Virus record (IMG/VR): IMGVR_UViG_648276647_000004
Location: 1 to 43,461 of that record
Length of the DNA stretch: 43,461 nucleotides
Source: a virus
Taxonomy: Duplodnaviria > Heunggongvirae > Uroviricota > Caudoviricetes
Strand: one strand, 5' to 3'
Each line of letters opens with the position of its first letter. The first letter of the stretch is position 1. This document shows, in pieces, positions 33,001-36,000 of the stretch. The position numbers were made by a program.

Positions 33001-36000
33001 AAGGGGTTAGGAAGCAAGCTGGGCTTAATCGGTACGATTGGTGTTTTGGGGCAGATGGTACAAGACCAGTATAAAGATGTTCCTGATGCACAAAGGCCTT
33101 GGTTTTTTCAGCAGCACTGGTTCGAAAGATTATTCAATATTGAATATGAAGATCCAAATCAGGATGTACCAACAAATCCATCAGGGAAAACAAGAGCGGA
33201 TAGAAACTTCAACCCATTAAATCTTAGAACTAAAGGTAATGCAGGTAGGGATTCTGGAGGGTTTGCGAAGTACACTGATGATGAGTCAGGATGGGAAGCA
33301 GCAAGAAGGCAATTATCTCTGTATTACACAAGAGATAAACTTAACACTATAAACGGTATTATTACGAAATGGGCTCCACCTTCAGAAAACGATACCGCCT
33401 CATACATAAAGCAAGTTTCTAAGGCAATGGGGGTTGATGCAAATGAAAAACTCGACCTTTCAGACCCGTCTGTTATGGCTAAATTAAGCTCCTACATGGC
33501 ACGACATGAAGGTTATTCAAATTGGAAGCGGGGTCTTGATTATGGTAACCCAACGAAAAATAGCAATGCCGCGTACTACCAAACCCAGCAAAGATTGGCT
33601 AATGGATCTGCAAACCAATCCTATGCCCAGAGCGTTGTTAACAATTACAACAGCCAGCACATAGGAGAGGTAAAGGTAATTGCCAAAACGGATCAATCCT
33701 CAAAACTAACCGAAGGATTTAAGGAGTTGAATCGCAGATCATCAGTAAACCAGGCATTTTCAAGTGGTGTTAGATAGTTAAAAGTTGCGATGGGATGGCG
33801 AAGCAATGGCAAAACCTCCAAGTGTTACCATTTCATCTCTAAAAGCCTTATCTTTAGCTGCTTTTTGTGCACCTGACATGATGTTCTTGTGAAAATAGTC
33901 TCTGAACTTGGCCTCTTCCTCGGATACATCTGGAGTAAAACGACCATAGTCAGATTCAATCTTATCTAAAATTATGCTTGCAGTATTGGGCTTGAAGATT
34001 GAGTATGACAAAAAAACTCGACAATCATTCGCTTGTTCCATGACGAATTTTTTCATGTCATCAGGGTTAAATCTTCTTGATTCAGAAGCGTATTTTTGAG
34101 CCAACCCAATGCAAGCAATCTCAGCTTCCTTGGTGACATGATCTGGTGGAATAAGCCCTTCTTCTCCATACGCCGAAGCTAAGAATAGCCAAGAGGAGAT
34201 AATAGGAATGGCATAACGAATATATGATTTTTTCATATTATAATCCTTGTGCTGTTTTTATGATTCTACCCATTAAATGAAGAAAAAACACGCAGCGGTT
34301 AGTTTTGAGCAGGATACCAGATGATACTGTGTCGCTTCCAGGTGGAAGCATTTCGCTACAACTCAAAAGGAGTTGAAGTATTGAGAAATCTAGTTAATGT
34401 TTCTACCGCAGCCTAATTAAATCTTTTTATAAAAACCAACCCAGCTTCGGCTGGTTTTTTGTTTAATGGAGAGTAGATGGGCATAATCGATTTAAACACA
34501 GCAGACATATTTAATGCTATCGGTGGTGGCTCTCCGCTTTCGATTATCGACAGCGTTCTGCATCCTCAGTATGTGATTCGTGACAGGGAAACTGGCGAGG
34601 TTGCTCTTGAGTTCTGCGGTATGGCATCCGTGCAGCCAAGTGGCAGGGCGCAAATAACAAACGCCCCGGTGGAGAAAGGGAAATACCAGTCCATCAACAA
34701 AGTTAAAGAACCCGCCAGAGTAAGATGTGCAATCATCGTAAATGGTCTTACTGGTTTTTCCGGCAATATCCCGAATATTTTCGATCTAACATTCACAAGC
34801 CAGAACAGCACGCTGAACACAATCAAAACGATGCTGTCCTCTGCAAAAACATACGATATTGAAACTCCAAAGGAAACTCTGGAGAGTTTCGACCTTGTTG
34901 ACCACTATTACGAAGTTAACTCTCAAAAGGGGGTGACTCTTCTGACGGTTTATCTTGATTTTCAGGAGGTCATTCAGCAAATGGAGGTTATCCTCTCTGG
35001 ATCTCAGTCAGAACAGAAGCCAACGGATAACAATAAGTCACAGGGAGATGTAGGAGTTGATCCGCAAATAACCAACGGAGGAGCCAGGGAATCTACTGTC
35101 GATGAGCTAAGTAAATCATGGTCATCACTGAAGTCATCTGTTGGCGGAATCACTGGAAAAATCTCCGGCACAATCAAGACTGAATTTCAGAGTGCTCTTG
35201 ATACGGTGTCCAAACCAATACTCGAAGTCACAAACAGCGCAACAAAAAAAGCGGCAGATATTGCAAAAAATATAGTTAAGGCGAGTACATGATTACAGTA
35301 TCTGTTCTTCCCAGCAAATCTCAGTCCATTTCGGTAAGTCTGGCTGGCCAGCAATGTAATATAAAACTTGTTCAGCGACAGAGTTTTATGTACATGGATT
35401 TAACTGTTAATGAAGTCCCAATTATGCAGGGCGTTCCATGTCTGTATGGGAATAAGATGGTAAGATATTCCTACCTTGGATTTAAGGGAGACCTTATTTT
35501 CATTGATAATGATGGGGAATCGGACCCGCAATGGGAAGGCTTGGGTAGCCGTTACTTGCTGTATTACATCGAGGAAAACGAGCTTGTATAAAAATCACAG
35601 TCTTCGGTTTGACTTCACGAATGAATCATCAGCATTTGATAAAAATGGAAACAATAAAATCTCCATAAGAAATGTTAAGTCAACAGTATCACTGAACTTT
35701 GTTACAGGTCGTGGAGGTGCTCAGGCTGATATATCTCTTTACGGGTTAGGAATTGAAAGGCTTGCTGATATATCAGGGAAGGCTGATGGTATTGTTGGAG
35801 AAGGGCAGAAGTTAAATGTTGAAGTATTTGCTGATGATTCTCTTGTTTTCTCTGGCACGATGCTTTCATCAATAGCAAACATGAATTCTGCTCCTGAAAG
35901 CAGTCTGATGATAACAGCCTCTTCTAATGTTGATTTGCAGAACATGCCAGCAAGCCCGTTTACAGCACAGGGGGCGCAAAGTGTTGAAGATGTCATCTCA

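Follow-up and report, generated by a model that had tools for sequence, protein, structure and literature searches.

The stretch of DNA analysed here, 43,461 nucleotides of a tailed phage of the class Caudoviricetes (IMG/VR record IMGVR_UViG_648276647_000004; hereafter 'the window'), carries among its tail genes a small gene on the opposite strand (33778–34236, minus strand), which starts with ATG and encodes a protein of 152 amino acids (aa) with a predicted Sec signal peptide. To its left lies the plus-strand gene for a 591-aa tape-measure or lytic tail protein (TMP; 32002–33777), and the two stop codons adjoin directly, the TAA of the small gene occupying 33778–33780 (minus strand) and the TAG of the TMP gene 33775–33777. 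To its right, after 240 bp, follows the next plus-strand gene, a Dit-like first baseplate gene (34477–35292). A Shine-Dalgarno sequence, AAGGA, is found at 34244–34248 on the minus strand, 7 nt 5' of the ATG, and the GC content of 33750–34500 is 0.35–0.41, compared to 0.43–0.50 in the flanks. Judged by its gene content, the phage that carries the gene is a temperate myovirus with lambda-type regulation (Int, N, CI, CII, O), found as a prophage in Enterobacterales. A preliminary description, made from the sequence of the window, had placed an antisense gene for an exported protein here, with its stop abutting that of the TMP gene, its own ribosome-binding site and an AT-rich setting. The gene proves genuine, having homologues, purifying selection and a conserved signal-peptide pattern, and the other particulars also hold, the AT-richness being real though modest.

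Homologues of the 152-aa protein, which we call family A, were sought on a large scale. A search of 5.8 billion proteins returned ten clusters at 69–99% identity, from E. coli, Citrobacter, Enterobacter, Salmonella, Yersinia ruckeri and Edwardsiella; the family is small, since searching 1.84 billion representatives exhaustively with a profile contributed no more than five further relatives, each 148 aa long and 27–39% identical. Over the whole range of 27–99% identity the homologues agree in length, in the pattern of the signal peptide and in two invariant cysteines (C42 and C72), the distant relatives of 146–148 aa sharing both the signal peptide and the cysteine pair. Between the window and relatives of 72–73% identity, the proportion of nonsynonymous differences (pN) in the mature part is 0.11–0.12, compared to a proportion of synonymous differences (pS) of 0.74–0.83, which is saturated; the signal-peptide part, with a pN of 0.34–0.39, changes approximately three times faster than the mature part. 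The open reading frame (ORF) at 33778–34236 is a real gene under strong purifying selection.

The signal peptide was judged by inspecting alignments of the homologues and with a hydropathy script, and its cleavage by inspection. In all homologues the N-terminus is rich in K/R at its start, continues as a hydrophobic core of some 14 residues and has small residues at -3/-1, while the sequence itself varies, and the alignments contain no lipobox; these are the basic n-region, the hydrophobic h-region and the small -3/-1 residues, with no lipobox cysteine, that characterize a Sec type I signal peptide, and they agree with the signal peptide proposed in the preliminary description. The predicted signal peptide spans approximately residues 1–24 (nt 34165–34236, minus strand), cleavage in the window protein being predicted between AYG and EE, and leaves a predicted mature part of about 128 aa, an all-alpha bundle with the invariant Cys42 and Cys72. 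An AlphaFold2 model built on the family alignment has a mean pLDDT of 84 and comprises a low-confidence N-terminal segment followed by six helices; model and hydropathy concur in a single N-terminal hydrophobic segment and a soluble helical bundle after it. We regard the product as a Sec-exported, all-alpha protein of about 14 kDa from a functional gene, as model and alignments indicate, which is probably soluble in the periplasm and probably has a Cys42–Cys72 disulfide. The model and fold search that the preliminary description had called for thus yielded a confident all-alpha fold with no match in the PDB or BFVD, Foldseek returning nothing from either database at E ≤ 0.001. The protein has no match in Pfam, PHROGs, NCBIfam or PADLOC, and profiles of the Ivy, MliC/PliC, PliG and LprI families gave no Pfam/NCBIfam match at E ≤ 0.1–1. 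At the RNA level, Rfam at gathering thresholds found only two tRNAs in the entire window; at a permissive threshold, 33500–34700 gave a single hit, a sub-threshold match to rsmX RNA (20.7 bits compared to a gathering score of 56, E = 0.25), which was treated as noise.

To place the gene among its relatives, 78 viral-contig loci were fetched with the Dit-like protein as the anchor, and the interval between the TMP and Dit-like genes was analysed in 79 loci, including the window and genome loci; some of these are redundant, and they are not independent of one another. In 38 of the 79, a signal-peptide protein is encoded by a gene that converges on the TMP stop, and the gap between the two is -17 to +20 nt in 36 of them, and 81 and 95 nt in the remaining two (L002 and L037 respectively). 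Family A is always convergent with the stop of a TMP of 585–600 aa at a gap of 0–10 nt, with the sole exception of L002, where the TMP is truncated. This arrangement recurs in metagenomic and viral contigs as well as in genomes of Yersinia and Enterobacter; it is kept in a viral contig whose protein is 39% and whose TMP is 41% identical, and is fixed even at 33–39% protein identity. What occupies the position varies, there being at least five cassette groups without detectable mutual similarity: A (perhaps with F), a B/C/D superfamily, E, a 157-aa type and G (a 192-aa type). The B, C N-terminal and D sequences are united by hhalign probabilities of 91–97%, and family F (L082) is linked weakly to family A (55%). 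A single superfamily for A and B/C/D, suggested by a common Cys-x(28-31)-Cys helix-hairpin pattern, was not supported, the hhalign probability being below 10%, and a comparison of the family A profile with the 157-aa protein of L003 found no similarity. Representatives of the other cassette families had no Pfam or PADLOC match that reached a Pfam gathering score or a convincing E-value. The 157-aa type, a stand-alone protein in L003 and L024, recurs as the C-terminal domain of the C proteins, which have two domains. The convergent ORFs of L036, L039, L060 and L075, 272–287 aa long and exported, consist of a B-like N-terminal domain, a (Pro-Ala)n linker and a domain of the 157-aa type; the cassette proteins are themselves modular, because these ORFs join the two.

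A second type of E. coli prophage, represented by L022, has a family B gene where the window has family A. Homology between the two runs as far as 33766, is lost over the ORF, returns at 34259–34324 and resumes again from 34438, and because it breaks over the ORF and resumes on both sides, the ORF is a cassette exchanged between conserved flanks. In close relatives whose flanking tail genes are 97–100% identical the cassette is either absent or replaced by unrelated genes. As to presence or absence in related prophages, which the preliminary description had proposed to examine, 4 of 5426 complete E. coli genomes have family A and about 42 have a prophage of this type. A tblastn search of 50,697 deposited phage genomes found no match to families A and B, and every copy of either that could be located sits in this prophage slot; a family-profile scan of genome contigs, a method limited by its peptide patterns, revealed no relatives. 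In being present or absent among close relatives and distinct in base composition, the gene behaves as a moron. The comparisons identify the 152-aa gene as one allele among those that can be swapped at a cassette position by the 3' end of the TMP gene; hence it is no one-off insertion between tape-measure and baseplate genes, as had been supposed, the position being recurrent in 38 of the 79 loci. In a further group of loci (L040–L043, L053, L054, L057 and L096) the TMP is of the SLT type, there is no antisense cassette, and a 285-nt slot contains a small plus-strand ORF (for example, 7749–7961 in L040) for a hydrophobic protein of 60–70 aa, followed by the same boundary hairpin as in the window, described below.

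A location inside the tail gene cluster is what a virion or tail-assembly component, or a protein of a lysis cassette, might be expected to have. Such a role is nonetheless most improbable, given that the gene is on the opposite strand with its own promoter and an export signal, and is missing or replaced in prophages with 97–100% identical tail genes; the view that the product is accessory and not a virion component, already taken in the preliminary description, is sustained by the same observation. The ORFs presumed by position alone to be lysis genes are far away, after two tRNA genes at 17523–17678. These phage tRNA genes, for Asn(GTT) and Thr(TGT), are on the plus strand just upstream of the putative lysis ORFs, placed as such by position only.

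The 240-bp upstream region had been recognized at its correct length, but it is composite, comprising a promoter, an element shared with the sieA leader of phage P22 and the 3' remnant of a deleted gene. At its right end is a bidirectional intrinsic-terminator hairpin (34431–34464), with a core CCAGC-UUCG-GCUGG at 34441–34454 and U runs on both strands. A terminator scan found hairpin and T run on both strands at 34441–34463; on the minus strand the hairpin extends to an 11-bp stem with -14.5 kcal/mol and z = -4.5. The Dit-like gene follows it at a distance of 13 nt. Relatives without the cargo gene regain homology to the window at 34438/34439, i.e., at the hairpin, and in relatives the hairpin follows the last plus-strand antirepressor-type gene of a module, like the terminator of P22 ant. 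These alignments identify it as the conserved right boundary of the slot. The UUCG-loop structure at 34441–34463 is therefore real but is not the terminator of the 152-aa gene, to which the preliminary description had assigned it, because it is upstream (5') of that gene and of its promoter. Downstream of the gene, a terminator scan of the minus strand over 33000–33778 found no terminator-like site of the kind that marks a moron.

Immediately inside the hairpin is the 3' remnant of an ORF6N/antirepressor-like gene (34342–34416, plus strand), 75 nt comprising 24 codons, VEAFRYNSKGVEVLRNLVNVSTAA, and a stop codon; the intact gene in relatives encodes about 259 aa, and homology to those relatives begins at 34339. 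In relatives, the interval from the cassette gene to the baseplate genes holds Arc-family repressors, an Mnt-like gene on the strand of the cargo gene, Ant/Bro-N/P22AR antirepressors, P63C and ORF6N. The order in P22 is gene 16, rightward; sieA with its own promoter, orf59a and mnt, all leftward; arc and ant, rightward; a terminator; and gene 9. By this comparison the arc/mnt/ant (immI) part has been deleted in the window phage, where nothing is left of the ORF6N-type gene but its 24 final codons and stop.

Between the remnant and the cassette gene is the element shared with P22 (34299–34339, minus strand). Within it, a 20-nt sequence, GGTATCCTGCTCAAAACTAA (also written GGTATCCTGCNCAAAACTAA; 34299–34318, minus strand), is identical to the P22 sieA leader, and in P22 the 20-mer GGTATCCTGCNCAAAACTAA directly separates the annotated promoter of sieA from its ribosome-binding site. 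The same 20-mer occurs in relatives with other cassettes or with none. It is preceded by a -10-like TATCAT at 34321–34326 (minus strand), and hexamer and leader together may be a second, constitutive promoter resembling PsieA. Over 32–41 nt the leader region matches the E. coli phages JEP4, EC.P3 and E212 at 95–100%; JEP4, the only one of the three inspected, is a P22-like Lederbergvirus. At the sieA position of JEP4 (L011), directly downstream of the leader element, there is an unannotated ORF (2802–2990, minus strand) for a 62-aa, two-helix membrane protein.

Position, flanking module and leader, as compared between these genomes, make the slot the counterpart of the P22 sieA or 'ant moron' (immI) region. 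In P22, sieA needs no more than 85 bp of its upstream sequence in order to exclude, and mutations that escape SieA are located in the neighbouring ejection proteins, in their C-terminal parts (PMC10883804). The correspondence is one of place and not of sequence: the SieA family is defined in part by an FxRYPxEAxxFNK motif (PMC10883804), and hhalign gave the family A profile a probability of 0.6% against P22 SieA. The immunity-type factor that the preliminary description had listed among its possibilities gains from this in respect of position only, inasmuch as the slot corresponds to the home of a prophage-expressed exclusion gene.

Closer to the gene is a promoter-like block that is common to cassettes of unrelated families, in which conservation extends over approximately 65 nt 5' of the ATG. 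In order, the block consists of a hairpin, often present (GCCCACCTGAGTGGGC), followed by TTGCGTGTTATTGC, 13 nt, TAGAAT, some 25 nt that include TAAGGA, and the ATG; a TAAGGA-type sequence is kept at the Shine-Dalgarno position across the families. Among 29 unique upstream regions, 15 have a perfect TTGC-N6-TTGC-N13-(-10) with at least 4/6 matches in the -10 hexamer, and nine more match the tetrads at 7/8; no shuffle in 2000 reached 8/8. The end of the -10 hexamer is 24–27 nt from the ATG in 26 of the 29, and 23, 33 and 72 nt in the others. No CII-type box was found in slots without a convergent cassette. A block of this kind, at a fixed distance from the ATG across unrelated families, indicates that the cassettes have their own promoter, as morons do. 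The motif TTGC-N6-TTGC is that of lambda CII (PMC4651098, PMC2629481), and we verified the lambda boxes as TTGCGTGTAATTGC (pI), TTGCGTTTGTTTGC (pRE) and TTGCGAGCACTTGC (paQ). The window's copy, a proximal promoter with CII-class geometry (34263–34295, minus strand), has the box CTGC-GTGTTT-TTTC at 34282–34295, which matches at 6/8, a 13-nt spacer, and TAGAAT at 34263–34268, ending 26 nt before the ATG.

The window phage encodes a protein of the lambda CII family (cII, 11254–11553, plus strand; PF05269, E = 6e-35), and upstream of int it has a pI-type box TTGCGTGTAATTGC (1795–1808, minus strand) in the form TTGCGTGTAATTGC-N13-TGTACT. We conclude from these sites that the window phage uses the lambda CII recognition sequence, because the box upstream of int is identical to lambda pI. 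A pRE-like TTGC-N6-TTGT-N13-TACTAT is present on the minus strand in the 5' end of cII, and the 13-nt distance from box to -10 in the cassettes is that of the window's pI and of this pRE-like site. CII is a candidate activator of the cassette promoter.

A promoter in this position points into the TMP gene, and it could be that the promoter matters and the ORF is a passenger: CII-activated transcription antisense to the tail operon would damp late expression in the manner of lambda paQ, whose box we verified as belonging to the same motif class. The conserved CII-type box and geometry accord with this, as does the minus strand downstream of the ORF, where 780 nt contain no terminator-like site. 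It is nevertheless an unlikely account of the locus. Slots that are empty or otherwise occupied never have the box, which is confined to those with a cassette ORF; the ORFs keep their export signals and show strong purifying selection; and Rho would probably terminate antisense RNA that runs untranslated past the stop. There may be an antisense effect in addition to the action of the proteins, yet it leaves the proteins unexplained.

The protein might instead be a lysogenic-conversion or fitness factor that alters host envelope physiology, for example in stress tolerance, in the animal host or in competition, and has no connection with exclusion; lambda bor and lom, which are conversion-type genes, provide the model. 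Export, accessory status and variable presence among relatives are what such a factor would display, and the same prophage carries a typical conversion gene, an AT3-SGNH acyltransferase (40825–42672, minus strand). CII boxes have also been described upstream of the conversion cassette gene gtrA in phage epsilon34 (PMC2629481). The fixed position abutting the TMP gene, the turnover of at least five exported families and the match to the sieA slot point instead to conflict between phages. Furthermore, families A and B occur in 0 of 50,697 phage genomes, all located copies are in the slot, and family A is rare (4/5426 E. coli genomes). On balance we consider a conversion factor a possible but less favoured explanation, somewhat ahead of the other alternatives. 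The acyltransferase gene, which is OafA/OafB-like, is antisense at the end of the tail-fibre genes, and an Acyl_transf_3 gene is found at the same place in an Enterobacter relative (L008).

The neighbouring TMP contains a putative muralytic domain. Residues ~395–510 (nt ~33184–33531) match the Enc34 endolysin's catalytic domain (PDB 7q47, E = 9e-7), and the same region matches the N-terminus of Gp29 in PDB 9vvp (E = 2e-14). The Enc34 domain, of family PHA02564, is a muralytic domain whose activity has been established experimentally (PMC8943055), and the position of its catalytic glutamate is conserved in the TMP. When the window (family A) is compared with the L022-type prophages (family B), the TMP genes are 97–100% identical except at nt ~33030–33500 (aa 345–507), where nucleotide identity falls to 63–71%; the last 280 nt, between this mosaic patch and the cassette, are 95–97% identical. 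Hence the two E. coli haplotypes differ in just two places, the muralytic patch and the cassette. The TMPs of a second group are 100% identical over residues 1–280 and nearly so to 360, differing mainly in 361–520, and are accompanied by cassettes B, D or none. Cassettes are found beside 25 of 27 TMPs of the PHA02564 type, compared to 13 of 52 of the SLT type, although these loci are not independent. The relationships among these sequences give only a hint of coupling between cassette and muralytic domain; a general co-variation of cassette family with the muralytic allele of the TMP, suggestive in the two E. coli haplotypes, fails across groups and was rejected.

One form of such coupling would be a Spackle-like inhibitor of the muralytic (PHA02564) domain of incoming TMPs, protecting the murein at high multiplicity, which is a narrower form of the exclusion function that we favour below. 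The Enc34-type domain with its catalytic glutamate position kept (PMC8943055), the two haplotypes differing solely in muralytic patch and cassette with 280 nt of 95–97% identity between them, and the enrichment of cassettes beside PHA02564-type TMPs are all consistent with it. Against it, the association concerns two haplotypes only and elsewhere no cassette family goes with one domain allele; unrelated cassettes are also found beside SLT-type TMPs; and no similarity of the protein in sequence or fold was found to Spackle, Ivy, PliC, MliC, PliG or LprI-type inhibitors. CII levels rise at high multiplicity, when lysis from without is a risk, and this coincidence, part of general lambda biology, would also suit such an inhibitor. 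We consider this restricted version doubtful, and less probable than a conversion factor.

The reading that best accommodates the locus is that the exported protein provides superinfection exclusion, or protection against lysis from without, by acting in the periplasm against the DNA-delivery apparatus of phages with the same type of tail; we put its probability at roughly 0.45. The gene would be transcribed leftward from its own promoter, against the late operon. Its product would appear as lysogeny is being established and/or be present in the lysogen at a basal level, a timing suggested by the CII-class geometry, the good -10 and the PsieA-like element, and convergent late transcription would shut the gene off during lytic growth. 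Once exported, the protein would act in the periplasm on incoming phages of the same tail type, the target being the ejected tape-measure protein and/or its muralytic domain, and its action would resemble that of P22 SieA, P1 Sim or T4 Spackle without homology to them.

Several points weigh against this reading. No homology ties the 152-aa protein to a function, matches in Pfam, PHROGs, NCBIfam and PADLOC being nil and hhalign finding no similarity to Spackle, SieA or SimC, and the cleavage of its signal peptide was assessed by eye. With a box of 6/8, the two mismatches being in the tetrads, CII control of this particular copy is doubtful, and a consensus scan upstream of the gene found no sigma-70 promoter. 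A promoter dependent on CII alone would be silent in the established lysogen and thus fit poorly with classical prophage-expressed exclusion; the good -10 of the window and the PsieA-like element may, however, give constitutive expression. Finally, the cassette family does not track the muralytic allele beyond the two E. coli haplotypes, for A and B are both found beside PHA02564-type TMPs, and D beside PHA02564-type and SLT-type alike.

A more far-reaching proposal, which we offer as speculative, is that in this group of lambda-regulated myovirus prophages the 3' end of the TMP gene is a hypervariable locus of periplasmic effectors switched by CII, in which exclusion, protection against lysis from without, a paQ-like antisense transcript and an arms race are combined. 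As a cell commits itself to lysogeny, which often happens at high multiplicity, CII would switch on the exported protein, and this would neutralize the tape measure, muralytic or channel-forming, of phages that co-infect. That transcript would also continue into the tail operon in antisense orientation, in the manner of paQ towards Q, and the five or more alternating families and the hypervariable TMP patch would represent two sides of an arms race between phages.

The gene is of a known kind, namely an accessory gene, or moron, of a prophage at the sieA/ant-moron position, with a secreted protein as its product. Full-text searches of a paper library found no description of family A or its fold, of the alternation of several apparently unrelated exported proteins at a fixed position abutting the TMP gene, or of a CII-type promoter common to such cassettes. 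If exclusion is indeed the function, the cassettes would represent a new and structurally orphan set of periplasmic anti-phage proteins; the P22 sieA/immI accessory slot would have a counterpart, with alternative exported cargo, in contractile-tailed prophages; and the lambda CII regulon would gain a fourth class of target, an exported effector made in the lysis-lysogeny decision. Were the protein an ordinary conversion factor, the gene would be a routine moron. The cassettes constitute a natural allelic series in near-identical prophage backgrounds, the genes are small and their native promoters compact, and the idea of exclusion can be tested directly.

The remaining features of the window concern the regulation and architecture of the phage. 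Its lambdoid regulators comprise a lambda-type integrase, N, a CI-like repressor, CII, O and DnaB: int occupies 516–1586, with the pI region at 1560–1830 (minus strand), N 8418–8843 (minus strand), the CI-like S24 repressor gene 10134–10841 (minus strand), O 11851–12798 and the gene for a DnaB-type helicase 12795–14171. Thus a full lambdoid early region (8418–14171) is combined with an E217/XM1-like contractile tail, and a lambda-type int module is present in a myovirus with a non-lambda tail. A DUF2335 membrane protein is encoded between N and cI (9199–9732, minus strand), the interval that holds rexAB in lambda. At the right end of the window there is a 129-aa Peptidase_S24 (UmuD/LexA-like) ORF (42858–43247, plus strand). 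Among the relatives, an HNH endonuclease gene is antisense beside the sheath gene in L005 (11338–11832), L006 (5006–5500) and L009 (10802–11284), between sheath and tube in the first two and, in L009, on the sheath gene's opposite side; the window is without it.

The known systems that invite comparison each share part of this arrangement. With lambda pRE, pI and paQ, the cassettes of relatives have in common TTGC-N6-TTGC, 13 nt and a -10 hexamer (PMC4651098), the window phage encodes CII and has a lambda-identical pI, and the cassette promoter, like paQ, points antisense to late genes. They differ in that the cassette promoter precedes a gene for an exported protein within a tail cluster, that the tetrads of the window match at 6/8, and that activation by CII is here a prediction from the promoter's layout.

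T4 Spackle (gp61.3), a periplasmic inhibitor of the T4 tail lysozyme, is a small, Sec-exported, helical periplasmic protein made after infection (PMC7677548), features which are predicted for the window protein, and its cognate phage has a tail-borne muralytic domain, the candidate counterpart of which is TMP ~395–510. Spackle differs in having 97 aa and in belonging to a lytic phage with early promoters, and profile comparison and structure search found no sequence or fold similarity between it and the 152-aa protein. HK97 gp15 and TP-J34 Ltp are prophage accessory products that block DNA entry and are overcome by changes in the tape measure (PMC10883804); on their descriptions they are set apart from the window protein, gp15 being an inner-membrane protein and Ltp a lipoprotein, whereas the window protein has no lipobox.

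In P1 (L098), simABC (1787–3071, minus strand) is divergent from the c4-icd-ant immI operon, and SimA, SimB and SimC each begin with a Sec-type signal peptide. Sim is Sec-processed and blocks the entry of P1 DNA after adsorption. The resemblance lies in signal-peptide proteins whose genes are beside, and divergent from, an antirepressor immunity module in a temperate myovirus; unlike the cassettes, the sim genes are not adjacent to a tape-measure gene, and BLASTP and hhalign found no homology of SimA, SimB or SimC to the 152-aa protein. After P22 and the present phage group, P1 sim is the third case of exclusion-type genes flanking an antirepressor module.

P22 sieA differs from the window gene in its product, SieA being an inner-membrane protein of 3–4 transmembrane segments without a signal peptide and the window protein a predicted exported helical bundle; in its phage, P22 being a podovirus with ejection proteins and the window phage contractile-tailed with a tape measure; and in its promoter, since the gene-proximal promoter is of the CII class here and P22 sieA is without one. 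The likeness is one of arrangement. In both, the gene is convergent to, and immediately follows, the gene for the last DNA-delivery protein; on its far side is an mnt | arc-ant module, after which comes a terminator before the next structural gene; and the two have a 20-nt leader in common and vary in presence among relatives (PMC10883804; PMC2629481).

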